DNA of 64,000 bases from Prevotella sp. (GTDB lineage Bacteria > Bacteroidota > Bacteroidia > Bacteroidales > Dysgonomonadaceae): the NCBI GenBank assembly GCA_031285625.1, contig JAITVV010000092.1:32001-96000 (forward strand), written 5' to 3'. Of the stretch, positions 38,424 through 63,793 are shown piece by piece. The stretch's first letter is position 1; the number at the start of each line of letters is the position of its first letter. Below the pieces are notes generated by a model. It was not told the origin of the DNA, made no database searches, and was given only the letters and a program-made list of their open reading frames with translations. The position numbers were made by a program, and so were the translations under genes.

Positions 38424-38440
38424 TATAAATATTTATCAAT

Positions 38441-39529
38441 ATGAAAATGAATAAGCTTTTTTACATCTTTCTTTCTATCACATTAGTTCTAGGATTTGCT
38501 TCCTGTAGTGACGATGATGATTACCCTGTTGTCGAACCACCTTTGGTAGGTACAGGAGCATATATCTTAAATAGTGGAAAGAGTGGAGATAATAATACTA
38601 ATATTGCTTATTATGATTATGAAACAGGTAAGGTTACCTATGGTATATTCGAATCTATAAACGATAAGCAACTAGGCGACACCGGACAAGATATTATCAC
38701 GTATGGGGAAAGAACCTATGTGGCTGTATATGGTTCAGCTGTTATTTATGTCTTAGATAAAACAGGTAAAATATTAAGCACGATAGAATCGACAAATGAT
38801 GGTAAAAAGCAACAGCCAAGAAATCTGACCGCATATGATGGCAGGATATATGTAACATATTTTGATGGATACCTGGCAAAAATAAATCCCAGCACTTTGA
38901 AAATTGAAGCTCAGGTAGCCGTTGGCCGTAACCCTGAGTATGTACGCGCATCCAAAGGTAAACTATATGTTGCCAATTCCGGAGGTATGGATTATAATAC
39001 ACCTATAGGATATGATAAAACAGTTTCGGTAGTAGATGTTGCAACCTTTAAGGAAGATAAGAAAATAGATGTAGTCCTTAATCCTGATAAGATGGTAGTA
39101 GATAGTCAGGGAGACATTTATGTAATATCGAATGGTAACTATGGAGATATCCCAAATACCCTGCAACGTATAGATGCTAATACTCAAGAAGTAACTCAGG
39201 TAGGAAATGCAACCTGGATGACAATGTGTAATGATAAATTATATATCATTTATTCTCAGTACGATGCTAACTGGAATCAGACCATAACATATAGTGTATA
39301 CGATGCCATAAATGAGAAAAAAATAAGTGATAATTTTATTACTGACGGAACTGATATAGATAAGCCATATAGTATATCTGCCGATCCTGTAAAAAATTAT
39401 ATTTTCATTGGAACATCCAACTATACGACCAATGGCGATATGTATATATTCAGCACAGATGGGAAACTAGTAAAAAAAATTGACACAAACGGATTAAACC
39501 CTATTGTTGTTTGTGCTACTGTTAAATAA
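38441..39529 (+). CDS. btuG: Surface beta-propeller lipoprotein, BtuG-like
   Basis: Lipobox FASC with an acidic export signal (SDDDD), LGDTGQ and YVANSGG repeats. Lies in the B12 operon. Confidence 0.7.
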   Translation: MKMNKLFYIFLSITLVLGFASCSDDDDYPVVEPPLVGTGAYILNSGKSGDNNTNIAYYDYETGKVTYGIFESINDKQLGDTGQDIITYGERTYVAVYGSAVIYVLDKTGKILSTIESTNDGKKQQPRNLTAYDGRIYVTYFDGYLAKINPSTLKIEAQVAVGRNPEYVRASKGKLYVANSGGMDYNTPIGYDKTVSVVDVATFKEDKKIDVVLNPDKMVVDSQGDIYVISNGNYGDIPNTLQRIDANTQEVTQVGNATWMTMCNDKLYIIYSQYDANWNQTITYSVYDAINEKKISDNFITDGTDIDKPYSISADPVKNYIFIGTSNYTTNGDMYIFSTDGKLVKKIDTNGLNPIVVCATVK

Positions 39530-39537
39530 ATCTGTTA

Positions 39538-40683
39538 ATGAAATTCTTCAACATAACATTACTTATTTCAATCTTCTTTGCACTTGCGGCCTGTAATAAA
39601 AACAGGCCAGCAGGGCAAGATAATAACCAGACTGAAGCAAATGCAGATACGGCATATACCGTACATTATGCAAAAGGTTTTCAAGTGAAAAAGTATGGTG
39701 ATTATACATTTGTATCAGTACGTGACCCATGGGATACAACCCGTTTGCTGCAAACATATATCTTAGTGGATAAGCAAAAAGAATTACCTGCTAATTTGCC
39801 TCAGGGTACAATAGTGAGAACGCCTCTAAATAATGTTGCTACATATTCTACTATACACTGTTCATCACTGAATGAACTGGGAGTTACAGATATTATAAAA
39901 GGTGTATGTGAGCCACAATATATCAAATTAGATGTGATTCAGCAGGGTGTAAAAAGCGGGACTATAACAGATCTGGGAATGGCAAGTAAACCTGATGTTG
40001 AGAAAATAATAATGTTGAATCCGGATGCGATTTTTGCCACTCCCATACAGGGCTGGACATATGGTAATATAGAAAAGACAAAGATACCTATTCTGGAAAC
40101 AATAGACTATACCGAGTCAAATCCGTTGGGACGCGCCGAATGGGTACGTTTTTATTCCCTGTTTACAGGAACAGAACAATTAGCTGATTCTCTCTTTGCT
40201 ATTACAGAAAAGAATTACAAAGAGATCAAAAAGATAGTATCTAACACCACCCAACGTCCGTCAGTTTTGACGGATATTCGCTATCAGGGCAAATGGAATA
40301 TGCCGGGAGGAAAAAGTTTTATGTCTAATATGCTGGCTGATGCCGGAGCTACATATCCTTGGGCAGAGAACAGTTCAACGACTTATATGCCTTTAGCTTT
40401 CGAAAGTGTACTGGATAAAGCAGGTGATGCTGATATATGGATCATAAAATACAATACACCTTCGGACTTGACTTATGAAAGCCTTGAGAAAGAGTATAAG
40501 CCATACTCTCACTTTAAATCATTTAGAGACAGGAATATATATGGATGTAATACCGCTTATAGCAGCTATTACGAGGATCTGCCAATTCATCCGGATTATA
40601 TATTAAAAGATATGGCATACGTGTTTCATCCTGAATTATTTCCGGATTACACACCTAAATATTACAAAAAGTTTGGTGAATGA
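39538..40683 (+). CDS. btuF: ABC transporter substrate-binding lipoprotein (BtuF-like)
   Basis: Lipobox LAAC, YAKGF, ESNPLGRAEW, PGGKS and HPDYILKD...FHPEL. Confidence 0.8.
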   Translation: MKFFNITLLISIFFALAACNKNRPAGQDNNQTEANADTAYTVHYAKGFQVKKYGDYTFVSVRDPWDTTRLLQTYILVDKQKELPANLPQGTIVRTPLNNVATYSTIHCSSLNELGVTDIIKGVCEPQYIKLDVIQQGVKSGTITDLGMASKPDVEKIIMLNPDAIFATPIQGWTYGNIEKTKIPILETIDYTESNPLGRAEWVRFYSLFTGTEQLADSLFAITEKNYKEIKKIVSNTTQRPSVLTDIRYQGKWNMPGGKSFMSNMLADAGATYPWAENSSTTYMPLAFESVLDKAGDADIWIIKYNTPSDLTYESLEKEYKPYSHFKSFRDRNIYGCNTAYSSYYEDLPIHPDYILKDMAYVFHPELFPDYTPKYYKKFGE

Positions 40684-40701
40684 TTATTATATATAGGTTT
40701 G

Positions 40702-40740
40702 AAAAGGTGTTGGAGTCATATTTGATCTAACACCTTTTTT
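40702..40740. terminator. Bidirectional terminator
   Basis: aaaaggtgtt...aacacctttt. Confidence 0.8.
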
Positions 40741-41401
40741 ATTCTGCATCTTCATTATCACCGCAACCTTTATCAAAATACTCCATCGTTTCGGGATCTA
40801 ATTCCAGACACTGTTTTTTTATTATTACCATTTTGTTGTCTACAACCTTATATGTTGTTTCATCCACATACATCCCTGCACAACACTGGTTTCGTTCAAA
40901 AATAGTTTTATTGTCGTCATTAAATTCTAAAGAGGTACCCATTATCTCACTTACAAAAAACTTTTTGATTTCAGGATCGTACAGTAAATATAAACTTACA
41001 GTATTAGGACCCGCTGCATATCCTGCAAACAATGAGAAATCCTCATAACCATCAAAATTAAAATCCCCGCCTCCTATGGTTCCCGCACCATGCCAATTAC
41101 AGAAATCACATTCAAGCTCAATTTCCTGAACAAACCTATTGGTATATTTATCAAATACCTGTACACTCGTAAAATCAGCAAAAGAGTATTCTTTACCTTT
41201 GGTTGTAACTAGTTTCAGATAATAATTTTCGAGTGAGTCTACTTCTGATATTTTGTTACACCATTCATCTTTTTCCCAGTCTTCTTCAGTAAGTGCCGAT
41301 ATTGTGCTTGGCGCTATCTGTCCATAGATATTTGCTGATATAATAAATAAGAATATAAAAGAAATAAGTTTCATAGTAGTATTGTAACAGTTAGATAGCA
41401 A
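40739..41401 (-). CDS. Hypothetical secreted protein (XAC2610-related, DxNFDGxxD Ca-binding-like loop)
   Basis: Signal peptide and GDFNFDGYEDFSL...YLYDP. The true start may be the second Met. Confidence 0.65.
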   Translation of the reverse strand: MLSNCYNTTMKLISFIFLFIISANIYGQIAPSTISALTEEDWEKDEWCNKISEVDSLENYYLKLVTTKGKEYSFADFTSVQVFDKYTNRFVQEIELECDFCNWHGAGTIGGGDFNFDGYEDFSLFAGYAAGPNTVSLYLLYDPEIKKFFVSEIMGTSLEFNDDNKTIFERNQCCAGMYVDETTYKVVDNKMVIIKKQCLELDPETMEYFDKGCGDNEDAE

Positions 41402-41416
41402 ATGTATAAAATAAAT

Positions 41417-41454
41417 AAAAGCAATACTCTTCTTTAATCAAGAGTATTGCTTTT
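41417..41454. terminator. Intrinsic terminator
   Basis: aaaagcaatactctt...aagagtattgctttt perfect stem. Confidence 0.85.
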
Positions 41455-41474
41455 TATAAATATGTTCAAATTAT

Positions 41475-42113
41475 TCAGTAATAATGAACAATATCTATTA
41501 CATCAGATATGGACATTGCTCCCGGATTAATCCCCGGTTCCCCTTCAGGTACAGGTAGATTCAGTTTCCCGAAGTATTCTTTCCACTCTTTGGTTATCTC
41601 ATCCGAATCAGGCGATTTGAAAGTCATTATATTTAAAGGAAAAACAGGAACATTGTTATTTGCCCTTAATAGTATCTCATAAATAAATTCAGAGCAATAA
41701 TATTTATCATTCCCCATTACAAATCCATCATCATATTCTTTCCCGACCAACATAAATCCTTCCTCAATCGCTTTTGGAATACATCGTTGATACTCATCCT
41801 TCAGACGCCCGACCACAGATACGGGAAAACATCCTTTTCCATCTTCAGGATACAAATATCGATGCAAGGGCGTTACAGCTACTTTAGGATGAATAGCTTC
41901 AATCACATAAATACTACCTTTTTCATCGATATATACCATGCCTACATGAGTAAATTGATATCGATCCACACTAATTGTAACATCTTTTATAGCATTCCCC
42001 ATATTTCCTGAACATGATTCCTGAAAGATGAGATCGCCAGTCTGAAGTTTAAAGTCATCAGCCTTAACATTTAGGAATGATAAAATCAAGATAAAATATA
42101 TTATATTTCTCAT
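41475..42113 (-). CDS. Permuted papain-like NlpC/P60 enzyme (YiiX/YebB-like)
   Basis: LQTGDLIFQ, THVGM, VIEA and YYCSEF. Confidence 0.88.
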   Translation of the reverse strand: MRNIIYFILILSFLNVKADDFKLQTGDLIFQESCSGNMGNAIKDVTISVDRYQFTHVGMVYIDEKGSIYVIEAIHPKVAVTPLHRYLYPEDGKGCFPVSVVGRLKDEYQRCIPKAIEEGFMLVGKEYDDGFVMGNDKYYCSEFIYEILLRANNNVPVFPLNIMTFKSPDSDEITKEWKEYFGKLNLPVPEGEPGINPGAMSISDVIDIVHYY

Positions 42114-42121
42114 GTCTTTTT

Positions 42122-44140
42122 TTATCTGAAAGTATAATTAATGCCCCCCATCAACCAAAAACCGGCCTGTGGAATATTACCCCTATCGAAATAATGGGTA
42201 TCATAAAGGTTATTCATACTTAAATTGAATAAGATGTCCTTATATCTATAATTCAGTTTAAGGTCAAGAGTCGTAAATGAAGGATATGGTTCATTACCCA
42301 CTTTCTCCCGATTTTCGTATTTCTCATATACTCCCATCCTTTTCTGAAAACGAAAATACCATCCTGCTGAGAATCCCTTATATATCTCATGATGAAATTG
42401 TACCGTAAATTTATCTCGCAAATAATTAAGGCTATACAGTGAAACAAAATCCAGCGTATTACTCGACTGATGCATACGGGCATAGTCCAAAGAGAGCGAG
42501 GCCTGCTGACCTAAAGCAGGGAGAAGGTCTCCTAAACGAAATTTCACACCCATTTCCACTCCTTTTGTGTCTATCTTGGTCATGTTCCATGAAGCCCATT
42601 TATCATCTACTTTCACCCAGTCTATCATATCTCTTCCCCATAGAAGAAATCCGGTAAGATATGCACTGAAAAAAGAATTATTATACTTTAGATTAAGATC
42701 TAAAGACTCTGATTTCTCGGGTTTCAGTCCACTATTTCCATTATGTGTTTCTGTAGTATAATACAGGTCTGTAAAAGTCGGCATACGCGTCGATTTACTC
42801 CATGATGCCGATATATTAAATTTATCAACAGGACGGTAACTAACACTCATTGTTGGGTAAAATTTATATTTACCACTCAATAATGTATTATGATTCATTA
42901 GTACCCCCGCTGATATAACTACTTTTTCTAAATTCAATGTATGCTCCAATGCCACACTGGTATTGGTGCGGTCATCATACATTTTATATTTCCGGTGAGG
43001 TTCTACCATTGGTTTGCCCAGTACCGTACTCATTATATCTTCTCTTCGGATTTCACTCCCCAGGCTTGTTGTACCCAGTTTCCATTTATACATAAAAATC
43101 AGGTTTGCACCATATGTATCATTACGATGAAAATTACGCCCGAAGTCGGTATCTTTAACCAGATCAAACTGATCATGATGCCTGTTCCAGTAAACAATTG
43201 GAATAACTTTAAAATCTGAACCGAATTCACCTTTCAGTGATCCCATATAAGTACTGGTGTGATCGTACTGATTCGGATATTTAGCTGAATAAAAAGTATT
43301 AGCCCCATACTTTTTATCGTTATAACCCAATTGAAGGTCGACTTTAGATGCGTCCTTCACTCTGAAACGGGTCTGCCAAAGCACATTATAAAGGTCATAA
43401 TCACTATTTGCGATATACCCTGATGAAGAACTATATCCCACAGATAAGCTACTTGTAGCAATACCGGTTTTGGCAACGCCACGCACTTCCATGCCGCGTA
43501 GTTTATGCATGCCTGCTTCCACGCTTGCATAAGCTTTATAATCTGCATTTTTTTTAGTAATAATATTGATTCCCCCTGAAAAAGCACTGGCACCATATAT
43601 AAGGGCTGATGGGCCGTGAATGATTTCGATACGTTCAATGTCGGAAAGATTGATGGGAATGTCGAAGCTGTAGTGTCCTGTCTGGGCATTGGAGATATTA
43701 ACTCCGTTTAATAGGACTGCGTTTTGATCGAATGTGCCGCCTCTGATCGAAATGTCGGCTTGTACACCATGTCCGCCTCGTTGGATTACATCTATGTTAG
43801 CGGCGTAAACTAACAAATCCTGAATACTCTGGACGGGTGCCTGCTCTATCTGCTCTTTGGTGATTACCGTCACAAGCTTTGCTGTCTGATTGATCGGAGT
43901 CTCTACCCTCGATGCCGTAACCATGACTTCATCCAGCTCTTTCTCCATTACTTTTTGTTGTTGCTCGTTACTAGCTGTCGTTTGTGCAGAAACGGTGGAT
44001 ACATGCAAAAATGTAAGTGCACACCCTGTTACAACGCCAATGTTCACAAGCCTGTGCATACTGTTAAATGCACTGTAAGCCTTTCGCAAAAATCTTTTGA
44101 AGCGATAAGCTTGTTGTTGATTCGAATGCTTTTGATTCAT
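42122..44140 (-). CDS. TonB-dependent receptor
   Basis: LDEVMVTASR, ISIRGG, ERIEIIHGPSALIYG, LKPEKS and a C-terminal YTFR. Confidence 0.92.
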   Translation of the reverse strand: MNQKHSNQQQAYRFKRFLRKAYSAFNSMHRLVNIGVVTGCALTFLHVSTVSAQTTASNEQQQKVMEKELDEVMVTASRVETPINQTAKLVTVITKEQIEQAPVQSIQDLLVYAANIDVIQRGGHGVQADISIRGGTFDQNAVLLNGVNISNAQTGHYSFDIPINLSDIERIEIIHGPSALIYGASAFSGGINIITKKNADYKAYASVEAGMHKLRGMEVRGVAKTGIATSSLSVGYSSSSGYIANSDYDLYNVLWQTRFRVKDASKVDLQLGYNDKKYGANTFYSAKYPNQYDHTSTYMGSLKGEFGSDFKVIPIVYWNRHHDQFDLVKDTDFGRNFHRNDTYGANLIFMYKWKLGTTSLGSEIRREDIMSTVLGKPMVEPHRKYKMYDDRTNTSVALEHTLNLEKVVISAGVLMNHNTLLSGKYKFYPTMSVSYRPVDKFNISASWSKSTRMPTFTDLYYTTETHNGNSGLKPEKSESLDLNLKYNNSFFSAYLTGFLLWGRDMIDWVKVDDKWASWNMTKIDTKGVEMGVKFRLGDLLPALGQQASLSLDYARMHQSSNTLDFVSLYSLNYLRDKFTVQFHHEIYKGFSAGWYFRFQKRMGVYEKYENREKVGNEPYPSFTTLDLKLNYRYKDILFNLSMNNLYDTHYFDRGNIPQAGFWLMGGINYTFR

Positions 44141-52320: not shown

Positions 52321-53298
52321 TTACCTATATGGAAAGGTTATATTATCCATATTTTTTACGTACTCACGCTGTTTACGAAAAAACTCACTCTGCATCAATT
52401 CATTCGAAGAGGTAATAAGGGTCGAATATTTCATAAGGGATTCTAACCATTTCTTTTGCACAGTACATACTTCCTTATTACTAATAAAAATGGGTGGCAT
52501 GGAAACTACCCAGAAAATACAGACTTCTTTAGTATCATATTGTACATAGATAGTATTGGTATCAATTTCAAGTGATGAAAGATAATAACTGATTTTTCCC
52601 TCTTCATTAAATTTACCATCCTGAACCAATTTCTCAATAATATCAATCATCTTATACAAATCTTCTTTTAGAACAGCCTTTTCCTCATCTGTAATAAGCT
52701 TCCTGATATAATAATATTGAATTTCTTTTATCAAATTTAAAAAGATACTTGGTCCCATTACCGAAATAACATTCCGGCTTGTCTTGATGTCTGATATAAG
52801 TTGTTCCTTTAAAGAAAGAATTTCGGATGGCACTATAACATCTGAATACATCCTGTTAGAAGGGATATCGGCACCCTGATGTAACCATTTGAAATATCTG
52901 AATTTAAAGAGATGGTCACATTTCACGAGAAATATCGGAGGCAGGTGATTCCATGCATTGATCGTTTCTGTATCCCCAGATACGGCTACCTCATTGAGAT
53001 GCTCTTTGACTAACTTCAATATATTTAAAAAAGTATCTGAATATGACGTTGTACTATTTGCTAATAATTCGAAAGAAGCTATCCCACCATCTTCTGAAAT
53101 GAGCTCATCAACAGAAAAACCTAATTCATGGGATAATTTAATTATCTCATCAAAAGAGAAAGAAACCTCCCCCTTCATTCTTCTATACACTGACTCATTG
53201 CTTATATCTAACAAATCTACTAAATATTGAACTGGCTTCAGTTCTTTTGGGATATGATCCAATAATTTTTGAATAATATCACTTTTGGATTGTGGCAT
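52321..53298 (-). CDS. HTH (XRE-like) transcriptional regulator, paralog 3
   Basis: LLDISNESVYRRMKGEVSFSFDEI..L...LGFSVDE HTH, and HLFKFRYFKW. Confidence 0.8.
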   Translation of the reverse strand: MPQSKSDIIQKLLDHIPKELKPVQYLVDLLDISNESVYRRMKGEVSFSFDEIIKLSHELGFSVDELISEDGGIASFELLANSTTSYSDTFLNILKLVKEHLNEVAVSGDTETINAWNHLPPIFLVKCDHLFKFRYFKWLHQGADIPSNRMYSDVIVPSEILSLKEQLISDIKTSRNVISVMGPSIFLNLIKEIQYYYIRKLITDEEKAVLKEDLYKMIDIIEKLVQDGKFNEEGKISYYLSSLEIDTNTIYVQYDTKEVCIFWVVSMPPIFISNKEVCTVQKKWLESLMKYSTLITSSNELMQSEFFRKQREYVKNMDNITFPYR

Positions 53299-53442: not shown

Positions 53443-54411
53443 TCAAAAATTACCAAATTTTATATTTTCAATACATTCCCTTTGTCTATCAAAATACTCC
53501 TCTTGTACTATCTCATTTGACTGTGTAATTAATACAGAATATCTTTTTAATGACTCCAACCATTCATGGTGAGCATCACAGATTTCGGGATTAGATATAA
53601 TTATTGTATTAAACTGATGAAAATTAAATGAGGAAATTATATTATCATCCCATTTGAGATAAGTACTATTACCGTCGAGATTAAATTCGGAAAGATAATA
53701 ATAATGCTCGGTTCCTGGATTTGCTTCTCCGGTTCTTACTATTATTTCTATATCATCTATCAAATCATGAAAACTTTTCCTTATACCTTCAAGCTCACTA
53801 TCACTTATCAACCCCAGTTTATAAAAATAATATACTTCCCTTAAAGGACTCTTAAATACATTCATATCCAGAATAAAAGTAATCTTTTTCTGACTCCGTA
53901 CCTTCATATCCAATTCTGCACACAATCTTTGTAGTTCATCTGATATGATTATATCAGAATAATACAACTTTGGTAATTCCTTATATTTCCTATGCATCCA
54001 TGTATAGTAATAAAAGCGGAAAAGCTCTTCAAAATGCAGGCAAAATATTACAGGTAAATAATTCAAAGCCATTGTAATAGTTGAACCCCTACTATTCATC
54101 TGATTATCAACATACTTTGTCAGCTTTTGTATTTTTAAAAGAAATGCATGTTGCGGATCCTTATTAATCTGCAAATTCAGACCTATCATATTAAAACTTT
54201 TATTACCGGCCAATTCATCTATAGAGAATTCTAGTTTTTGCGATAGCTTTACAATTTCTTCAAAAGTAAAAGCCATCTCTCCCCTCAACCGTCTGTATGC
54301 AGATTCTTTGGCAATATCAAGAGTAGCAGAAAGAAAATCTACAGGCTTTATATGTAAAGGTATTTCGCTGATTATCTTATTTATTATTTTTTTCCTAAAA
54401 GCTTCATTCAT
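53443..54411 (-). CDS. HTH (XRE-like) transcriptional regulator, paralog 2
   Basis: LDIAKESAYRRLRGEMAFTFEEI, and LFRFYYYTW. Confidence 0.8.
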   Translation of the reverse strand: MNEAFRKKIINKIISEIPLHIKPVDFLSATLDIAKESAYRRLRGEMAFTFEEIVKLSQKLEFSIDELAGNKSFNMIGLNLQINKDPQHAFLLKIQKLTKYVDNQMNSRGSTITMALNYLPVIFCLHFEELFRFYYYTWMHRKYKELPKLYYSDIIISDELQRLCAELDMKVRSQKKITFILDMNVFKSPLREVYYFYKLGLISDSELEGIRKSFHDLIDDIEIIVRTGEANPGTEHYYYLSEFNLDGNSTYLKWDDNIISSFNFHQFNTIIISNPEICDAHHEWLESLKRYSVLITQSNEIVQEEYFDRQRECIENIKFGNF

Positions 54412-55399
54412 AAGAGAAATTCTTATTTTTAATGTTGTCTACATAGCTTCTTTGCTGATCGAGAAATGCAGTTTGTAACGGTTCGTTACAACCTGTAATC
54501 AGGCTGGAATATTTCTTAAAGGAAACAAGCCAGGCTTTATATGTTTTACAGACTTCCCGATCTTTAGATGCTATATGTGTCCCCGAATATATCCAGAAAT
54601 GGCACTCTTCCTGATCTCCATATCTGGCATACAAGCCTGATGACTCTATCCTGAATGAAGGGATATAGATCTGACTGTTAAAATTAGGTGATTTGATTTT
54701 TTCTTTGACCATTCCCTCCAGCATATCTACAAAACTTGAGAAATCCTGTTGTATTAAAAGTAATTCTTCGTCCGAAATAAGCTTCCGTTTATAATAATAT
54801 TGAACTTCAAGAAGAGTATTTTTTATAAAATTTTGGTCTAATATATATATATTATTTCCCACAAAAACTCCATTTGATTTGATATTATCTCTTAATATTG
54901 ATATTTTTTCGGGTATTTCTATGTCTGACAGCCTAAACTTAAGCGGCATTAAATGAAATTGTTGCACCCATTTATAATAATAAAATCTGAATAAATGGTC
55001 GAGATGTATTGTGGAGAAAATCATCAGATGGTTTACTGCAATTATTACTTCAGTTTCCTTATAAACCAAGTTTGCCAGGCTATTATCATACATTGAAAAA
55101 ATTTCAAAGAATAATTGCTCCGGATCAAATATACTATTACTTCTATACTCAAATAAAGACAGTTTTGAATTCAAGTTCTTTTCTTTTGAAGAGTGTATAA
55201 TCTCATCCAGCGAAATTGATAAGTCTGTTGCTAATATATAAATATCTTGTAATGTAAATGGAACTTCATCTCTAATCCTACGATAAATAGATTCTTTACT
55301 CAAATTTAATGCACTAGCAAGGTAGTTAATTGGGCTTATATAAGGAGGAATCTTAGATAATACTGTATCTATTATCATTTTATTGAATAAGTGTGTCAT
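54404..55399 (-). CDS. HTH (XRE-like) transcriptional regulator, paralog 1
   Basis: LNLSKESIYRRIRDEVPFTLQDI, and HLFRFYYYKW. Confidence 0.8.
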   Translation of the reverse strand: MTHLFNKMIIDTVLSKIPPYISPINYLASALNLSKESIYRRIRDEVPFTLQDIYILATDLSISLDEIIHSSKEKNLNSKLSLFEYRSNSIFDPEQLFFEIFSMYDNSLANLVYKETEVIIAVNHLMIFSTIHLDHLFRFYYYKWVQQFHLMPLKFRLSDIEIPEKISILRDNIKSNGVFVGNNIYILDQNFIKNTLLEVQYYYKRKLISDEELLLIQQDFSSFVDMLEGMVKEKIKSPNFNSQIYIPSFRIESSGLYARYGDQEECHFWIYSGTHIASKDREVCKTYKAWLVSFKKYSSLITGCNEPLQTAFLDQQRSYVDNIKNKNFSYE

Positions 55400-55423
55400 T
55401 AGTTTTTGCTTTTGTCTTAGTCA

Positions 55424-55431
55424 CAAAACTA
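55424..55431 (-). promoter_or_regulatory. Bacteroidetes -7 element for the regulator trio
   Basis: TAGTTTTG on the minus strand, 25 nt upstream of the ATG. Confidence 0.55.
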
Positions 55432-55989
55432 CTTATTAATTTTATATATTAAGAAAAAGTAGATAATGTGCTAATTCACAACAAATTCACGAGTCCACAC
55501 TCAACTTTTCAAAGAAATAAACCAACTAATTTGAAAAAAAAACTTTTTTTTTAAAGAATAATGAAAAAATATTGTGGGCATAAAAGCAACATTTCAATTT
55601 TTTGAAAAATAAAATTTATATTATGTCAGATTATTGAAACAAATATTTTCATCTGTCATTTTTTATATCTAATTCCTAATTTATTAGTAGTTATTTTGCT
55701 TCACGAAATGATAAGGTATTATAATAAGCAAACATTTTAATAGTAAAGATAGTTCACAAATATTTATCCTATTTAAACTTTAACACCCTTTTATTGAAGA
55801 CAACAGGAGGCTAAAGGTAAAACTTGAATAATATCCACAAAACTTCAACAATAGTACAAGCTATATTCCAATTTCAAGTAATATACATAGTGAAGTATAA
55901 TGGGAATAAAGAAGACAATTCCAGTTAGGACTACTATTATTTTGACCAATTAATTTTTATTTTTTATTAAACATAAGTATATATAAATG

Positions 55990-56104
55990 AATTCAATGTC
56001 TCAAAGATATGGCGTATCAAAAGTTGTCTTCAATTGTCTGTCTTAAATGTCTCAAATTGTTGCTTGCGAAAGTAATAAAGAGGATATCTGAGAGGCATTG
56101 AATT
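55990..56104. repeat. 21-bp imperfect inverted repeat enclosing TGTCT(C/T) direct repeats
   Basis: aattcaatgtctcaaagatat (55990-56010) matches the reverse complement of 56084-56104 at 18/21 positions. Confidence 0.7.
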
Positions 56105-56167
56105 ATTTTAAACGGAAAAGAATAAAGCAAAAACATTATCCAAGGCAAACTAATAAATTAATTAATT

Positions 56168-56944
56168 ATGATCACAAAACTTGCAACCTTTTTATCAATT
56201 ACACTGTTAACGATAGGAGTTACAGGACTAAGAGCCCAAGTTACAATTGGTTCTGATCTTGAGCCTGTAAATGCAGCATTACTTGAGCTAAAGAACTTCG
56301 ATGCAACCAATCCGGCAAAAACAACTGACAATGAAAATATTACTTCCGATAAGGGTGGCTTATTATTACCCCGTGTAATACTTGTCAACCGGAAAACTCT
56401 CGAACCTTTTATTAAAACAACAGACCCTTTATGGGTTGATGCTTCCACTTCCAAAATAAAAGAAAAGCATACAGGGCTCACTGTATATAACATAAACGAA
56501 TCGCCCGAAACAGTCACCGAATTGAATAATATATTCCATCAGGGAGTGTATCTGTGGGATGGTGCAAAATGGGTAACAATGGGAGACTCAAATGTCGGAC
56601 AACGATATTTCAACATGCCTGCATTCAATCTGCCGCTAACAAAAATAACCCAGTCGGGAGATACAAAACCCACATACGACCTCTATGCTGAATATAAGAG
56701 ACAGTTCACCAATGATACCAACAATCCTCTTTTCGAAAGCAATAAAGCTACCCTGCCCGGAATTCCTTCACCGGAATGCGGAAAACTATATGAAGCAGGC
56801 GAACTTGATTATGTAGTCACACACTACGATAAAGATGTACTCACAATAAATGGTATAGATGCCAACGGTGTAATGACTTACGAGGTAAAAAGCCTGGATC
56901 CGGGGCCAAACTCATTTGTAAATATCGTATTCGTTATCAAATAA
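56168..56944 (+). CDS. Secreted hypothetical protein A1 (AQVTIG / GGLLLPRV / WDGAKW family)
   Basis: Signal peptide ending RAQ. Paralog of 59098-59865. Confidence 0.85.
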   Translation: MITKLATFLSITLLTIGVTGLRAQVTIGSDLEPVNAALLELKNFDATNPAKTTDNENITSDKGGLLLPRVILVNRKTLEPFIKTTDPLWVDASTSKIKEKHTGLTVYNINESPETVTELNNIFHQGVYLWDGAKWVTMGDSNVGQRYFNMPAFNLPLTKITQSGDTKPTYDLYAEYKRQFTNDTNNPLFESNKATLPGIPSPECGKLYEAGELDYVVTHYDKDVLTINGIDANGVMTYEVKSLDPGPNSFVNIVFVIK

Positions 56945-56961
56945 TTAATTGAATAAAAAGC

Positions 56962-59070
56962 ATGAAAAAAATATACATACTAGTTTTCTTATTAATGTAT
57001 GTAAGCATTACACTGTTTGCACAGAAAGAAGCTTATACATGGGCCTTTGGGAATAAGGCAGGACTGGATTTTAATAATCTTCGTTCAGCACCGTTTTCCG
57101 CTACACGCCTTTATCCCTCTGCCGGAACGGTATCCATCCCTAATCTACCAACGGCTATCACAACAAATATCACAACATATGAGGGTTGCTTTGCCCTGTC
57201 AAATGCCGTTACAGGACAGCTAATGTTCTATTCGGACGGAGTAAATGTATTTAGAAGTAACGGATCAATTATGAGTAACGGTACAGGACTGGCCGGACAT
57301 GTATCCTCTACCCAATCCGGTGTTTTGATGCCATTTCCCGGAAATTCAAATAAATATATAGCGTTATCTATCAATTTAATTGCTGCATCAACACAAGTAG
57401 CCTATTCAGTAATTGACATGAGCGATGGAATAGGCAAAGTACTGGACGAAAGCCCTTTCTTAAAAAACACACGACTAACAGGACATCAGGGTATTTTAGG
57501 AGAAAGTGTAAATACTATCCAACACGGAAATAAAAATGACTTCTGGATAATAGCCCCCGGATCGGGAACCAACTCAGCATTTAATGCATGGAAGGTAACC
57601 AAAGAGGGGGTACAAGCATCTACTCCTGTTGTTTCATTATTCCCGGCAGGAGCACTGGAAGCGAGCAGAAATACATATATAAAATTCTCTCCTGACGGAA
57701 AGCATTTCGTATGGTGTAATAATTTCAACTCAACTCCATTCTGGTTTGGGGATTTCGATAATATGACTGGTGAATTTTCCAATATACAGATGGGTATTTC
57801 AAGAAATCAATCAGGAGGAACAATATTGGGTTCATATAGTGCAGAATTTTCTCAGTCAGGCAAATACTTATATGTATCTACAGGGAGTGGGTTAAATGTT
57901 TATGATTATGCTGCCCTGGCTGCTAACCCAAGTACTTATACAGCTACAGTTTACACTATGAATGGAGGTGATGCTACAAGCACAACACAAAACTCTTTAG
58001 CATTAGGGTCCCTGCAATTAGGACCTGACGGGTATATATATGCAACATACTATGATAGGATGAAATCACCTAATGATGATTTAGCAAATTTAACTAATGG
58101 TAGCAGGCGCTATATGATATTGATAACCAATCCGGAAAACCCCACAAACTTAAATATTTACAGGCTCGACAACTTCCTCAATGCCGGTACCGGAGGCCAT
58201 GTTGGTATCACTTCATTTTCTCCTTCATGGTTTACACTTGAGATAAATGGAGAAGCCTCTATCTGTACAAATCCGGCAAGCAATATTACAGAAAGTTATT
58301 CTATCAACCTGGCCGGGACAAGTGCTTCAAGACCGACAGAGCTTCGCTGGTATTTCGATGCTGACAACTCCTCTTCATACACTTCACAGACAGTAAACTC
58401 TACTGATATGACATTAAGTATGGCCGGAAGTTTTCCACCTGTATCTTCTGTTACTACACGCAAAATAGTAGTAAAAGCATATAACGGTTCTACAGAGTTA
58501 GCAGACCTGGAACAATCCCTTACAATTACCTTGTATCCCGCTGCGTCAGTCAGCGCTTCCGATGTCTCTGTCACTTCTGGCAGTACAGCTACATTAACAG
58601 CCACAGCCAGTACCGGAGCTACCATAAGCTGGTATGATTCTGCCACAGGTGGCACCCTGTTGGGTACAGGTGCTACCTATACGACCGGAGCAATCAGCAG
58701 CGAAAGGTCATTCTATGTAGAGGCTGCAAATCCTGCATGTTCATCAGGAAGGCAAGAAGTAAAGGTTACGATCAGAATAGCACAACCAACAATTGATGTT
58801 TCTGATCCGGCTACTATCTGTGCAGGCAGCACAGCCACACTAATAGCTACAGTCAGTGCCGGAGCCAATGCCTACTGGTTCTTAACGCCAACCGGTGATT
58901 CTCCTGTAATGATAGGCACATCGGTGACTACTCCTGTCCTCGATTATACGACTACATACTATGTAGAAGCACAGAATTCAGGAAATGTGCCATCGGAACG
59001 CAAAGCAGTAAAAGTTGTAGTAAACCCGTGTACACTTCCGGTAAACCCGAATATACACCTCATTAATTAA
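56962..59070 (+). CDS. Secreted adhesin-like protein B1: beta-propeller, PKD-like domain, two Ig-like repeats and a CTLPVNP tail
   Basis: Signal peptide (FAQ), WAFGNKAGLDF, KFSPDGK, EFSQSGKYLY, LQLGPDG and two TATL.AT...W...TG...G...TT.....YVEA repeats. Confidence 0.85.
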   Translation: MKKIYILVFLLMYVSITLFAQKEAYTWAFGNKAGLDFNNLRSAPFSATRLYPSAGTVSIPNLPTAITTNITTYEGCFALSNAVTGQLMFYSDGVNVFRSNGSIMSNGTGLAGHVSSTQSGVLMPFPGNSNKYIALSINLIAASTQVAYSVIDMSDGIGKVLDESPFLKNTRLTGHQGILGESVNTIQHGNKNDFWIIAPGSGTNSAFNAWKVTKEGVQASTPVVSLFPAGALEASRNTYIKFSPDGKHFVWCNNFNSTPFWFGDFDNMTGEFSNIQMGISRNQSGGTILGSYSAEFSQSGKYLYVSTGSGLNVYDYAALAANPSTYTATVYTMNGGDATSTTQNSLALGSLQLGPDGYIYATYYDRMKSPNDDLANLTNGSRRYMILITNPENPTNLNIYRLDNFLNAGTGGHVGITSFSPSWFTLEINGEASICTNPASNITESYSINLAGTSASRPTELRWYFDADNSSSYTSQTVNSTDMTLSMAGSFPPVSSVTTRKIVVKAYNGSTELADLEQSLTITLYPAASVSASDVSVTSGSTATLTATASTGATISWYDSATGGTLLGTGATYTTGAISSERSFYVEAANPACSSGRQEVKVTIRIAQPTIDVSDPATICAGSTATLIATVSAGANAYWFLTPTGDSPVMIGTSVTTPVLDYTTTYYVEAQNSGNVPSERKAVKVVVNPCTLPVNPNIHLIN

Positions 59071-59097
59071 CAGAACAATACCTAAACATATTAAATT

Positions 59098-59865
59098 ATG
59101 AAAAATTTAAAACTGAAAATCAAAACTACATTTACATTATTGGCTATCATTGCATGTTCTTATCAGGCACATGCACAAGTAACTGTAGGTTCAAATAATC
59201 CCCCTGCAAAAGCGGCATTACTTGAAATAAAAAATATAGAACCAAATGATCCGGCCTCACCTACCGATGCTAATAATATCACAGTAAATGATAAAGGCGG
59301 AGGACTGGGACTACCCCGGGTCAAGCTTGTAAATATAAATACATTGCAGCCATTCATTCCTACCGGAACAGACTGGACAAATAATACGGACAAAGTAAAG
59401 GAAAAACATGCCGGACTAATGGTGTATAATATATATGTATCACCAGATGGAGAAGATGCAGATAAAACTTTCTCACAGGGAATATATGTATGGGATGGAG
59501 CAAAATGGAAAAAAATGATGGATGGTACAGCACAGCGTTATTTTTACATGCCATCGTTTACCATCAAGCTTGTTGAGAATAATAATCCCCAAACGTGTGA
59601 TTTGTATGCCGAATATAAAAAACAGTTCACAAACGACAGCAACAATCCGTTGTTTGTAAGCAGCAATGCAAGTCTTACCAGAATACCATCTCCGGAAAAA
59701 CAGCGGTTATATGCAAAAGATGAACTTGACTATGCCATTACTTACTATGATACGAATATCATTAATAATGTAAGCATAGATGAAGACGGTGTCATGACCT
59801 ACGATGTAGTATCTGTGAATACAAATTCCAATTCGTTTGTAAATATTGTATTCATTGTAAAGTGA
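59098..59865 (+). CDS. Secreted hypothetical protein A2 (paralog of A1)
   Basis: AQVTVGS, ALLEIK, GLGLPRV, HAGLMVYN, WDGAKW, YFYMPSF and FVNIVFIVK. Confidence 0.85.
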   Translation: MKNLKLKIKTTFTLLAIIACSYQAHAQVTVGSNNPPAKAALLEIKNIEPNDPASPTDANNITVNDKGGGLGLPRVKLVNINTLQPFIPTGTDWTNNTDKVKEKHAGLMVYNIYVSPDGEDADKTFSQGIYVWDGAKWKKMMDGTAQRYFYMPSFTIKLVENNNPQTCDLYAEYKKQFTNDSNNPLFVSSNASLTRIPSPEKQRLYAKDELDYAITYYDTNIINNVSIDEDGVMTYDVVSVNTNSNSFVNIVFIVK

Positions 59866-59872
59866 TAAAAAT

Positions 59873-62800
59873 ATGAAAAAACTATATATATTATTATTGT
59901 TGCTATCCTTGGCAGGCATACAAAATATGTTTGCCCAGAGAGAAGTAAACAATTGGTTCTTCGGAAAGAACGCAGGGCTCACATGGAACACTATACAGGA
60001 TTTCAGTGCCACAGGGCTATTCGGAACGCCCAACACTACACTAAAGAGAATACCCACCGAACTGACAGGTTCACCTATGAACACACACGAAGGTTGTTTC
60101 ACCCTATCCGATTCGGATGGGCGTTTATTAGCCTTTTCGGATGGTATAACCCTTTACAATAGGAATTATGAAGTAATTACCAGTGGTCTGGGGGGGCATG
60201 CATCATCAGCTCAGTCCGGCATTATAATACCTTATCCCGGACATCTTAACAAAGCTGTTGTAATTTCACTAGGAGCCGAAGGGGCTAATAACTTAGGCTT
60301 CAACATCCTGAATATGTCACTCAATAACGGTTTAGGTGGAATGGAAGGAACCAGGGTGCTATTTACAGGAATACCGGCAGGAAGTAAAACTAGTGAAAAC
60401 GTAACATCTGTACGGCATGCCAATAAAAAAGACTATTGGATTGTAGCCACATCAAAAATCACATCAGGCAAGACTTACCTGAATGCATGGCTGGTAACCT
60501 CATCCGGAGTACAATCCGGTAATGCTGTTACATATGAAATTCCCGGATTAACAACAAATGCCGAAAGCTCCCAGGGATATCTGAAATTTTCGCCCGATGG
60601 TAAGCATTTTGCATGGGGCACATGGGAAGGAAAGCTTGTATATGGAGACTTTAACAGTTCCACAGGAGCATTCAGTAATGCCAGATATATAGATACAAAT
60701 TATACAAGGGATTTTTATGGAGTAGAATTCTCCTTGTCAGGCAAATACCTGTACACTACCGGAAGTGAGCAGTACAGCCCCCAGATAAATGGGATTAAGG
60801 TCTGGGATTTTGATGAATTACTTGCTACGGCTTCACCTACCCCGGCACTTGCGAAAAAAAATTTCCATTTCGATGAATATACTCAGCTGGGAGCTTTGCA
60901 GATGGCACCAGACGGACGCATATACATCCCGGCAAACATTTTTCAACCATGTATATTTGTGATCGACAATCCGGAAGAAGATCCGAATTCTCTCAGACTA
61001 TATAAACTGGATAACTTATTCTCTGCGGGTGCTTATCCAAACATAGGGCTTCCTTCATTTGTAGCATCCTGGTTCAGCACCAATATTATCGGCACGAATG
61101 AATTCTGTATGGATACAGATCAATATTTCGAATACAGGGGTAAGATAGACAACATATATATAAATACTCTAAAAAATACGGTCTGGGACTATGGAGATGG
61201 GATAACAGAAACAAAACCGTTGATTATATCCGGTTCTAATGTATTCTTTGCCTCAACTACTCATCGCTACAAAAACAGGGGAGAGTATACTATCCTGGTA
61301 AAAGTATTAGATACCGATGACGATGAGATAAGGGATTTGGAGCAAACACTACATATCAAAGTCAATAGCTGTGCAATCCCTGTGAATCATATAACCACTC
61401 ATCTGAATAATACTGCATCCAGACCGGGATGTACACTGCCTGCTCCTCCTACAATTACATTTAATCCAAGCCCGGTCAATATAACAGAAGGGGATACATT
61501 CACAGCAACTATAACATCTAAAGCCGGAGAAACTTATGCATGGTCAATTTCGAACTCTGTCACTAACGGATTATCGATCGAAGGTACAACCAAAGGAAAC
61601 TCTATTACAATAAGAAGTTCCATTGCCGGAACATTCAATGCAAATAATATAAAAGTGACTGCGACCAACTCCTGCGGTTCTACAAATGGGTATGGCAGCG
61701 GTAATATCGTTGTAAACGGAGCATGTCTGGTACCGGTAACTCCGGTTATTGTTCTCAATCCTAGCCCTACGAAAGTAAACAGGAACGAAACATTCACAGC
61801 CAGCATATCATCTCCTGAAAGCGGAGTATCCTATAGTTGGAGTATCTCAGACGCTACTAATAACGGACTAACAATCCCTGGCACTATTACAGGAAATTCG
61901 ATTACCATAAAAGCGACAAAGAGCGGTTCATTCGATGCCAGTGCGATTAATGTTATAGCCACCAACAGTTGCGGTAACACACCGGGACTAGGCTCAGGGA
62001 CTATCACAGTTAATAACTGTGAAGCCGCTCCTGACCCAACTATAGCATTCAGTCCAAGCCCTGTCGTTATTAATCAGAATGGTACATTCACAGCTACTGT
62101 ATCGGTATCAGACCCTACCGGAGTAACCTATAAATGGGCTATTTCACCGGCCGGACAAGCGCAGGGATTATCTATCGACGCTTCTACACCGGACACAGGT
62201 ACTTTCATTACAATAAAAGGGGCCACAGTAGGAACAATCGATGCAAATGTGATTTCCGTTACTGCAACAAATCAATGTGGAACAGGAACAGCTACAGGTA
62301 GTGGAAATATTACAGTAAACGACTGTTCACCTGTAAGCAGGACTATTACCTTCACTCCTAGCCCGGTAGTCATTGATATTAATAATACATTTATTGCAAG
62401 CATATCTGTTTTACCTGGTGAAACAGTCTTATGGTCAACTGGCAATTCTGCAACTAATGGCTTATTAATACAAGGTAGCAATAATGCCTCTTATGTAACT
62501 ATCAAAGGAACTAAGTCCGGCTCATTCAATGCCAGCGATATAAAGGCAACTATAACCAACTCATGTGGTTATACGGAAGTAATGGGTACAGGTACTATAA
62601 CTGTCAACAATTGTGTAGTTCCTAATCCGACTATTACATTCAGTCCTAGCCCTGTAGTAATTGAGAGCAACAATAATTTTACAGCTACTGCATCGGTATC
62701 AGACCCTACAGGTGTTACTTATAAATGGACTATTTCCACCGAAGGTATATCCAAGGGATTATCTATAGTAGGCTCAGATACACAAGCCTCTGTTGCAATA

Positions 62801-63661
62801 AAGGGAGGAACAGCAGATATTATCAATGCTAATGTAATTTCTGTTACTGCCACTAACAGTTGTGGTTCAAAGACAACTACAGGTTCTGGCAATATAACTG
62901 TGAAGGCGCCATTCTCATTGATATGTAACGATGTATATGCTACGGGATACATAAATTATGATATGGGTACAGAGGTTATCCAGATACCTTATACAATGAC
63001 CAGTGGCTCATCTTATAAATTACTAGCTGCTGAGATTGGAACACATAGTGGTATAACAGCCAGAGTAGAGGAACAAACACTGGATAAACAAACCGGAGGC
63101 TATATCGAAGTTAAGTTCTCAGGTTCTACAAGTTCACGTCTGGATAAGGTTGAATTCTCGATAAAAATTGGCGGCAATGTATGTAGCATCTATCTGTCAA
63201 CCATTACGCCTCCTAAAGACTGTGAGAATGGAACTTCCGGTAAAGCTTTCGTCTTCGAACAAAACTCTAAATGGTATGTTGTAGCTATAAGAGGAAAAAT
63301 GTATGGAGAATTTGCGGTTGCCGAAACCATTGAATGTAATAGTGAAGAAGAAGCACTTAGACACCCGGAAGCACTCCAATATTGTGGAGATAAAGACGAG
63401 CCCAGATGTATAAAACTATTTAACAGAAACGGAACGCATGTAGGGTCTGTATATGTATCCGGAACTACTGAGGGCTGGACAGACAAAATTACTTTTGGAA
63501 ATATGGGATGTTGGGAATCTATCAGAGCATATGCAGGCAGCAGGATAGAAGCTACCAAATATGTAAGCGGATATTTTGGAGCATACAAGGTAGTTGGCGG
63601 AGTAGGCTATCTGGGTATAACCAGTGATATAGCAACACTAACAACCAAATCTCTGAGATAA
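59873..63661 (+). CDS. Secreted adhesin-like protein B2: beta-propeller, PKD, five Cys-bracketed Ig-like repeats and C-terminal domains
   Basis: Paralogous to B1 over the propeller. PKD WDYGDG...HRY..RGEYTI, an internal CAIPVNH motif, then five ~98-aa repeats. Confidence 0.88.
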   Translation: MKKLYILLLLLSLAGIQNMFAQREVNNWFFGKNAGLTWNTIQDFSATGLFGTPNTTLKRIPTELTGSPMNTHEGCFTLSDSDGRLLAFSDGITLYNRNYEVITSGLGGHASSAQSGIIIPYPGHLNKAVVISLGAEGANNLGFNILNMSLNNGLGGMEGTRVLFTGIPAGSKTSENVTSVRHANKKDYWIVATSKITSGKTYLNAWLVTSSGVQSGNAVTYEIPGLTTNAESSQGYLKFSPDGKHFAWGTWEGKLVYGDFNSSTGAFSNARYIDTNYTRDFYGVEFSLSGKYLYTTGSEQYSPQINGIKVWDFDELLATASPTPALAKKNFHFDEYTQLGALQMAPDGRIYIPANIFQPCIFVIDNPEEDPNSLRLYKLDNLFSAGAYPNIGLPSFVASWFSTNIIGTNEFCMDTDQYFEYRGKIDNIYINTLKNTVWDYGDGITETKPLIISGSNVFFASTTHRYKNRGEYTILVKVLDTDDDEIRDLEQTLHIKVNSCAIPVNHITTHLNNTASRPGCTLPAPPTITFNPSPVNITEGDTFTATITSKAGETYAWSISNSVTNGLSIEGTTKGNSITIRSSIAGTFNANNIKVTATNSCGSTNGYGSGNIVVNGACLVPVTPVIVLNPSPTKVNRNETFTASISSPESGVSYSWSISDATNNGLTIPGTITGNSITIKATKSGSFDASAINVIATNSCGNTPGLGSGTITVNNCEAAPDPTIAFSPSPVVINQNGTFTATVSVSDPTGVTYKWAISPAGQAQGLSIDASTPDTGTFITIKGATVGTIDANVISVTATNQCGTGTATGSGNITVNDCSPVSRTITFTPSPVVIDINNTFIASISVLPGETVLWSTGNSATNGLLIQGSNNASYVTIKGTKSGSFNASDIKATITNSCGYTEVMGTGTITVNNCVVPNPTITFSPSPVVIESNNNFTATASVSDPTGVTYKWTISTEGISKGLSIVGSDTQASVAIKGGTADIINANVISVTATNSCGSKTTTGSGNITVKAPFSLICNDVYATGYINYDMGTEVIQIPYTMTSGSSYKLLAAEIGTHSGITARVEEQTLDKQTGGYIEVKFSGSTSSRLDKVEFSIKIGGNVCSIYLSTITPPKDCENGTSGKAFVFEQNSKWYVVAIRGKMYGEFAVAETIECNSEEEALRHPEALQYCGDKDEPRCIKLFNRNGTHVGSVYVSGTTEGWTDKITFGNMGCWESIRAYAGSRIEATKYVSGYFGAYKVVGGVGYLGITSDIATLTTKSLR
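61430..62905 (+). repeat. Five tandem ~96-102-aa coding repeats
   Basis: Units begin at Cys codons 61430, 61724, 62018, 62324 and 62612. Consensus PTITF.PSPV.I...TFTA...W.IS...GL.I...ITIK...VTATNSCG...GSG.ITV. Confidence 0.9.
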
Positions 63662-63695: not shown

Positions 63696-63734
63696 ATGTG
63701 GAGGACTACGATTTGTAATCCTCCACATTTTTTT
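63696..63734 (+). terminator. Intrinsic terminator closing the A-B-A-B operon
   Basis: atgtggagga...tcctccacat hairpin followed by a T run. Confidence 0.88.
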
Positions 63735-63793
63735 ATAAATTATAAATTATCAATCCAATACTAATATCTTCTATTTATTTACTTTTATGTTAT

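Follow-up and report, generated by a model that had tools for sequence, protein, structure and literature searches.

Two paralogous gene pairs in one operon

The stretch of DNA analyzed here (64,000 nucleotides; hereafter, the window) is part of contig C37 in the genome of a Prevotella sp. from the family Dysgonomonadaceae (GenBank assembly GCA_031285625.1, contig JAITVV010000092.1), which comprises 4.84 Mb in 96 contigs and is 94% complete. The best matches of the window proteins come from Dysgonomonas, and the only sequencing runs that match the window DNA are labeled termite-gut or insect-gut. Close to the end of the window lies an operon of four co-directional open reading frames (ORFs), which are separated by gaps of 17, 27 and 7 nt and form two pairs, A1-B1 and A2-B2, with a small protein (A) preceding a large one (B) in each (Table 1). 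This operon, and in particular the relationship between the C-terminal domain of A (denoted A_C) and a short motif of B built around Pro-Val-Asn (the ‘PVN tag'), is the subject of the present analysis.

The two pairs are paralogous: A1 and A2 share 54% identity (E 1.6e-71), and the first 446 residues of B1 align with B2 at 40% identity (E 4.2e-61). The operon is closed by a single terminator hairpin (free energy of -18.5 kcal/mol, z-score of -5.4), which is not equaled by any of 200 shuffled sequences. All four proteins carry hydrophobic leaders ending in Ala directly ahead of Gln (A/Q), as judged by eye. This layout, including the Sec leaders cleaved before Gln, had been proposed from the letters of the DNA without database searches (hereafter, the sequence-only reading) and stands. 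The accompanying claim that lipoboxes are lacking stands for most of the proteins but not for A2, where residues 17-20 of the leader read IIAC, a lipobox-like sequence that precedes the usual A/Q site; 2 of the 57 other A leaders contain such a motif as well, and in contrast to most of its relatives, A2 may undergo lipidation. The fimbrillin families (type V pilins FimA/Mfa) did not show up in the Pfam scan of the operon proteins, of which the leaders end in A/Q, with a lipobox-like motif in that of A2 only, and neither A1, A2, B1 nor B2 has a Pfam match to Peptidase_S74.

The A_C domain and the PVN tag

The A proteins are not the orphans that they seemed to be from their letters. In the precomputed Pfam annotation, A1 and A2 carry PF26696.1, and so do nearly all listed relatives; this family goes by the atlas cluster name PTL_trimer, ‘Phage tail like trimerisation region', and the clusters concerned are 84–100% PF26696. 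Our own Pfam and NCBIfam scans of A1 and A2 yielded nothing, the PF26696 model lying outside that library, and a sequence search of PDB with A1 gave nothing useful. The same genome contains 26 ORFs with a PTL_trimer-type N-terminal domain (153–830 aa), all of which share the leader followed by a QVTIGS...ALL.LK...LPRV-type start. Pfam scans covered 20 of these 26 paralogues, A1 and A2 included; among 18 scanned, Fib_succ_major was identified in 2 and a weak C1q-like match in 1. With C-termini that vary to this extent among the 26 ORFs, A is, judging by sequence, one member of a large family of exported, fiber-like proteins with exchangeable C-terminal parts. A phage origin of A was considered and rejected, with no tblastn match in 50,697 phage records; one IMG/VR contig matches the N-terminal domain only.

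The last ~110 residues of A constitute A_C, a separate domain that takes the form of a beta-sandwich in the AlphaFold2 (AF2) monomer model of A (mean confidence score, pLDDT, of 86.6). Among the 26 PTL-type ORFs of the genome, A_C is in frame in 3, and in a fourth, on contig C4, it is out of frame. A second class of A proteins consists of A_C joined to a different but similarly patterned N-terminal domain (QVGINT...). The part of A that is specific to the pairing with B is the C-terminal domain only.

An A_C profile matches 1118 representative protein clusters at E<=0.001, 810 of them at E<=1e-10. The domain is located at the extreme C-terminus in each of the 150 matches listed of the 1118, and among the matches listed the hosts are mostly 190–290 aa long, with some of 430–1184 aa; Pfam searches with 18 of the long A_C-bearing proteins detected nothing informative. 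The possibility that A_C is a hidden C-terminal sorting domain (CTD) of a type IX secretion system (T9SS) was rejected, given the hhalign probability of 0.1% against small profiles of type A (built from 7 sequences) and type B CTDs; a permissive Pfam scan of 55 A_C domains found no CTD family either. Taxonomically, A_C is narrow: it was detected in 37 of the 151 genomes of the same family, including 25 of the 34 other genomes of the genus and 8 of the 10 genomes of a second genus (up to 26 copies each), but in 2 of 301 genomes sampled across the order and 7 of 301 across the phylum. In six genomes of the second genus (G310, G335, G342, G349, G355 and G365), A_C genes are strongly amplified, at 12–26 matches per genome, and many form pairs with a spacing of ~2.1–2.3 kb and a propeller gene in between (A-B-A triplets). 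In Myroides and Paenimyroides (Flavobacteriales; loci L034, L037, L040, L041 and L056-L058), the gene order is client-A-A, the client being the non-A partner gene, so that the module crosses orders within the class; a few genes away from these loci are long fiber-like proteins of 634–1095 aa with a QVGIGT...LPR start.

Nearly all B homologues encoded beside A genes end with C-x-[LI]-P-V-N-[PH]-N-I plus 4–10 residues, and the complete tag spans ~15 residues ([SP]-C-x-[LI]-P-V-N-[PH]-N-I...). Three subtypes were distinguished among 45 tails, namely NP (PVNPN.H, 25 tails), NH (SC.LPVNHNIS.M, 13) and RK (SC.L.VNPHIRG.N, 7). In A-B-A'-B' operons, the one in the window included, the first client carries an NP tag and the second an NH tag. 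The sequence-only reading put the short CxxPVN motif in the place of the sorting domain. The motif is C-terminal in B1; in B2, it is internal, with repeats and a head domain beyond it. The tag is portable and is not tied to the propeller that makes up the N-terminal part of B, for it also occurs on non-propeller neighbors of A, both proteins of 460–1093 aa and small ones of 136–214 aa.

The 43 public loci found with A contain 472 roughly called genes. A tag pattern is present within the final 25 residues of 50 ORFs, and for 46 of them, a same-strand A_C gene is no more than two genes away. A tagged neighbor is present in 27 of the 43 loci, 2 more have a variant or internal tag, and 5 are cut by contig ends. 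For comparison, in the complete gene set of the window's genome, 10 of the 4158 genes fit the pattern, among them B1 and a third B.

The linkage can be gleaned from the B side as well. In the sample of 151 genomes of the family, the propeller was found in 24, all of which (24/24) also encode A_C, and 63 of the 89 propeller matches have, upstream and in the same orientation, an A_C match whose end is 400 nt away or less. The figure is a minimum, since another 63 A_C matches fell outside the listing, and in all six of the 24 linkage exceptions that were re-examined, a weaker or unlisted A_C-type ORF adjoins B. Together with the 46 of 50 tagged ORFs, these counts bear out the expectation from the sequence-only reading that A homologues are enriched beside B-type and PVN-tailed genes. 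In the third A-B pair of the same genome, on contig C4 (G000:C4:24319-24979), an A-type gene precedes B, with its A_C end in another frame; orthologues of this gene are intact in three other genomes (219–224 aa), and the broken copy reflects either a frameshift or an assembly error.

When 33 A-client pairs are placed on a tree of A_C, tag labels require 5 changes compared with a mean of 14.9 for shuffled labels (none of 200 shuffles was as low), and cargo labels require 8 changes on the same tree. One clade of 14, with support of 96/95, contains every one of the 11 A proteins whose clients are NH-tagged (7 propeller proteins and 4 others). RK tags are found with A proteins of either N-terminal type (5 alternative, 1 PTL), and in loci L030 and L031, near-identical A proteins stand beside clients that have different bodies and the same tag. 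Thus, tag subtype appears, on the sequence trees, to track the A_C clade better than cargo type does.

Three further loci extend the range of arrangements. In L021 (Parabacteroides sp. PF5-9) and in G017:C6:150253-162165, 5–7 tandem tagged propeller-PKD genes follow 1–2 A genes, and therefore, one A may serve many clients. In the genome of the window, the third in-frame A_C gene (259 aa) is followed by a gene for a 544-aa exported protein (G000:C30:96527-98967; L072, L073) in which neither a propeller, a PVN tag nor any Pfam or NCBIfam match was detected.

A missing sorting domain in protein B

Pfam identifies two Ig_7 domains in B1 and PKD/PKD_6 domains in B2. In the AF2 model of B1 (pLDDT of 85.9 overall and of 55 and 47 in the tail blocks), a propeller at residues ~26-425 is followed by immunoglobulin (Ig)-like domains; the last 12 residues are modeled with low confidence, with the tag as an unpacked end. 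The N-terminal 500 residues of B retrieve 1l0q_A in a Foldseek search (E 4.3e-9), and the profile matches of the propeller are weak and of the lactonase type (5c2v_B at 1.2e-4, 3hfq, 4qrj), so that residues ~19-440 are predicted to adopt a 7-bladed lactonase/YVTN-type propeller fold. Other Foldseek neighbors of B1 are the Ig arrays of the T9SS-secreted GhpA, a propeller-PKD fragment of an archaeal S-layer protein and integrin alpha. A PDB sequence search with the tail region of B2 returned nothing useful.

Domains of this kind are common in T9SS cargo, and the genome does possess a T9SS: SprA was detected with 2723 bits, along with PorP and, on other contigs, 5 type A and 2 type B CTDs; the GldM model found no match, but neither did it in control genomes. 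Nevertheless, Pfam and NCBIfam searches at E<=0.1 detect a CTD of neither type in B1 and B2, in agreement with the sequence-only reading, and the closest listed B relatives are likewise without a CTD family. Six-frame scans of the genome produced 5 matches to TIGR04183 and 2 to TIGR04131, all on other contigs, and the single match to the PorP model TIGR03519 is on contig C75, not near the operon. Moreover, B1 ends 13 residues past the last Ig domain, which leaves no space for a CTD of 70–90 residues.

Outside the lineage, the picture is different. The propeller domain is present in 58 of 301 genomes across the phylum, and among 17 outgroup propeller proteins from 16 loci, 14 carry a CTD (12 CHU_C and 2 Por_Secre_tail) and 3 have neither. 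A PorP/SprF neighbor is found in 1 of these 16 loci, and an ORF with A_C or with the N-terminal domain of A in none. Some distant propeller relatives are fused to the OmpA-type peptidoglycan-binding domain PF00691. Because the outgroup is mostly CTD-bearing, B1 and B2 have no CTD and a T9SS is still encoded in the genome, the CTD was most likely lost in the lineage. The proposal of the sequence-only reading that a short motif and a partner protein have replaced the CTD is thus supported as an evolutionary statement by these comparisons.

Protein B is also connected to the PTL fibers through its C-terminal part. The head of B2 is 49–53% identical to heads found on PF26696 proteins, and all 14 of its shorter homologues carry an N-terminal PF26696 domain, one of them together with PKD_6 repeats; NCBIfam searches with two of the head proteins gave nothing. 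The third A-B pair, on contig C4, has a head-bearing PF26696 gene immediately upstream of it. The B2 head can accordingly be read as a ‘Rosetta stone' link between B and the PTL fibers. The propeller has been lost from the second client in Dysgonomonas sp. 521 (L016), which still has its PKD domain, internal tag and repeats, with another head in place of that of B2. Thus, heads, stalks, tags and bases are shuffled within one set of proteins.

Upstream of the operon and divergent from it are three tandem paralogous genes for BetR-type helix-turn-helix (HTH) proteins (Table 1), which are candidate regulators of the operon. A weak BetR match was obtained for one member of the trio, the atlas clusters are named BetR/HTH, an NCBIfam scan of the regulators produced nothing, and the stretch has a G+C fraction of 0.29–0.32. 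The family recurs, mostly in pairs, beside the A/B loci L016, L023, L035, L051, L107, L108 and L109, and neighbor clustering across the 43 loci singled out the HTH regulators as the sole further conserved neighbors. In the spacer between the trio and A1, a sigma-70 scan returned 36 sites compared with a shuffled mean of 32.4, a result at the level of chance, with a model that does not cover Bacteroidota promoters. Farther upstream, at 36429-44140 of the window, are genes for two TonB-dependent receptors, a periplasmic binding protein and a DUF5074 protein, which resemble an ordinary uptake locus with no relation to the A/B operon.

Table 1. Features of the A/B operon and of the adjoining region in window coordinates.
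Feature	Position	Strand	Details	Basis
A1	56168..56944	+	258 aa	ORF
A1 parts	56237-56587; 56600-56941	+	leader, residues 1-23; PTL_trimer-type N-domain, ~24-140; A_C, 145-258	PF26696.1, AF2, A_C profile
B1	56962..59070	+	702 aa	ORF
B1 parts	57016-58281; 58537-59025	+	leader; predicted 7-bladed propeller, residues ~19-440; Ig-like domains including 2 Ig_7	Pfam, AF2, Foldseek
B1 PVN tag	59029-59067	+	residues 690-702	tail comparison of B homologues
A2	59098..59865	+	255 aa	ORF
A2 parts	59098-59175; 59176-59520; 59530-59862	+	leader; PTL_trimer-type N-domain; A_C	PF26696.1, A_C profile
B2	59873..63661	+	1262 aa	ORF
B2 N-terminal parts	59930-61123	+	propeller, then PKD domain	alignment with B1, Pfam (PKD)
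B2 internal PVN tag	61370-61417	+	residues 500-515	motif core CxxPVN at 500-506
B2 C-terminal parts	61433-62902; 62909-63658	+	five PKD-like repeats of ~98 residues; head, residues 1013-1262	repeat and homology search
Intrinsic terminator	63696..63735	+	hairpin 63696-63728, then U7	
Spacer	55400..56167	.	768 nt, AT-rich, GC 0.25, between regulator genes and A1; presumed promoter region	
Three BetR-type HTH genes	52321-53298; 53443-54411; 54404-55399	-	tandem paralogues of ~325 aa, divergent from operon	ORFs

A docking model and its alternatives

The interpretation in which we place about half of our confidence is that the operon specifies an envelope fiber of two parts in two cognate copies, with A as a trimeric stalk that would dock tagged clients via A_C. 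Under this model, A1 and A2 would be exported by Sec as base or stalk proteins, with the N-terminal PTL_trimer domain (~115 residues) trimerizing like the shoulder of a phage tail fiber and A_C serving as a dedicated docking module that captures the PVN tag of the client encoded next door. B1 and B2, likewise exported by Sec, would be binding proteins (propeller plus PKD/Ig) descended from T9SS cargo, in which the sorting domain was lost in the lineage and a tag of ~15 residues took its place. The A trimer would then bear its client adhesin, with B supplying the binding surface, and the two pairs would be old paralogous cognate sets; in B2, the tag would be followed by a stalk of repeats and by a head otherwise seated directly on PTL fibers. 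The genes and their linkage, the domain architecture, the absence of a CTD, the portability of the tag and the head in common with PTL fibers are what the analysis shows. Trimerization, A_C-tag binding, adhesion and the surface location of A and B are the parts of this model that we infer. A more sweeping version, in which the portable PVN tag captured by an A_C trimer functionally replaces the CTD and the PorP-type anchor for a whole family of adhesins, amounting to a tag-and-adaptor display system of Bacteroidota, is put forward tentatively, as possible but rather doubtful. If true, it would imply either piggy-back passage with A or a new surface route independent of the T9SS CTD.

Several observations weigh against the docking model. 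In the AF2 monomer model of A, residues 24-100 are mostly coil, and structural searches with the model were fruitless: Foldseek found 0 matches at E<=0.001 both in PDB and in BFVD, and among 48,161 chains compared with VIA-align, the best Z-score was 4.1 (7z47_G), with none >=5. No outer-membrane component or export route is evident at the locus. B2, the second client of L016 and L054 have the tag at an internal position; nine A_C loci have contig room but no tagged neighbor (L028, L029, L036, L038, L039, L043 and L056-L058); and the B propeller is missing from 13 of the 37 A_C-bearing genomes in the sample of the family. The approximately unbiased test rejects a strictly monophyletic group of A proteins whose clients bear NH tags (p-AU of 0.023), with 3 A proteins that have NP clients nested in the clade, so that subtype specificity is loose. 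The mirror-tree correlation between A_C and the adjacent propeller (r of 0.45) is no higher than that after swapping partners within loci (0.48), so nothing indicates co-evolution of A_C with the body of B. Finally, related genomes share labels, and the tree and linkage statistics overstate the independence of the observations.

The PVN tail could instead be a sorting or processing signal for separate machinery (a protease, a transpeptidase or a variant use of the T9SS), with A as a co-substrate, chaperone or acceptor and not as the tag receptor. Such a signal would fit the conservation of the tag far beyond that of the protein bodies, its position 4–10 residues from the C-terminus in 45 tails, the Cys that precedes it in most B homologues, and the derivation of B from T9SS cargo in a genome that encodes a T9SS. 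We nevertheless consider this unlikely, given the three internal tags, the lack of any further conserved neighbor over the 43 loci except for the HTH regulators, the association of tag subtype with the A_C clade, and the dissimilarity of A_C from the CTDs of both types (the hhalign probability of 0.1%).

Alternatively, A and B might be independent, co-regulated secreted binding proteins, their adjacency resulting from inheritance and tandem duplication of the operon. The position of A_C directly upstream of 63 of the 89 B genes in several genera, the presence of the same tag on unrelated bodies beside A genes only, and the near-identical A proteins of L030 and L031 with their different-bodied, same-tagged clients make this quite improbable, even though the mirror-tree gives no partner-specific signal, A_C genes do occur without tagged neighbors and in genomes without the B propeller, and PTL paralogues with heads of their own evidently act alone.

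It seems more improbable still that the complex is periplasmic or cell wall-associated and is never exposed at the surface. The nearest outgroup relatives are T9SS surface cargo, arrays of Ig_7 and PKD domains typify extracellular adhesins, as do lectin-like heads, and the Foldseek neighbors (GhpA, the archaeal S-layer propeller-PKD protein and integrin alpha) are surface proteins. These considerations have to be set against the lack of a lipobox (ambiguous in A2), barrel, CTD or evident outer-membrane route, and the OmpA-type PF00691 fusions of some distant propeller relatives. A cryptic or degenerate CTD, which would make B1 and B2 ordinary T9SS cargo, is hardly tenable: they have CTD-bearing homologues and the genome encodes a T9SS, but no CTD appears at E<=0.1 with Pfam or NCBIfam, the genome scans that recovered 7 true CTDs found none here, and B1 has no room for one past its last Ig domain.

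The docking model has a parallel in the cohesin-dockerin pair, where a small beta-sandwich recognizes a portable module on diverse clients, with subtypes; the dockerin is a calcium-binding module of ~70 residues. In addition, some phage fibers have a separately encoded tip adhesin. We infer the likeness of A_C and the tag to cohesin and dockerin from the overall logic of the two systems: the tag has ~15 residues, there is no sequence or convincing fold similarity, and the best row in a comparison of cohesins with A_C (7urp_A, Z-score of 3.2) is within the noise of many Ig-like sandwiches.

Type B cargo of the T9SS is closer in evolutionary terms: the propeller of B is homologous to the N-terminal domain of CHU_C proteins (12 of the 17 outgroup proteins), and PKD and Ig_7 repeats are common in such cargo. 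Unlike type B cargo, B lacks CHU_C, with the ~15-residue tag in the place of the CTD. SprB/SprF, in the account of PMC9143113, likewise pairs a large adhesin with a small dedicated partner gene, PorP/SprF, but the partner here is a soluble PTL_trimer protein encoded upstream rather than a barrel. Surface proteins that combine a YVTN/lactonase propeller with PKD domains (1l0q) resemble B in fold only, which carries no catalytic implication, and the partner system is absent there. The other PF26696 proteins of Bacteroidota have the same leader and QVTIGS-type start as A, but most of them end in heads of their own, not in A_C.

The mosaic adhesive trimer (MAT) fibers of Bdellovibrio bacteriovorus, as described in PMC10769870, consist of a signal peptide, a conserved N-terminal domain of ~130 residues and variable tips, their anchor being unknown according to that account. 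Both MAT and PTL proteins form large paralogous families with swapped tips, a likeness of layout (PMC10769870). The MAT tip is part of the same chain, whereas here the binding protein is the product of a separate gene and is joined, as we propose, by the tag; and the S74 subgroup of MAT has an S74 chaperone, whereas the operon proteins have no S74 match. A literature search, with subscription journals outside its coverage, turned up no paper on the PF26696/PTL_trimer family, A_C or the PVN tag.

With its small A_C domain, a short tag that has three subtypes and is found on unrelated cargo, and sister proteins in which the CTD persists, the locus provides a handle on the surface display of CTD-less proteins that are not lipoproteins in Bacteroidota. 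Given the apparent termite-gut origin, adhesion to fiber or to protists is plausible, if speculative. If the docking is true, it would explain the lineage-specific loss of the T9SS signal, would add a compact pair of the tag/catcher kind and would help to annotate about a thousand A_C-bearing protein clusters.

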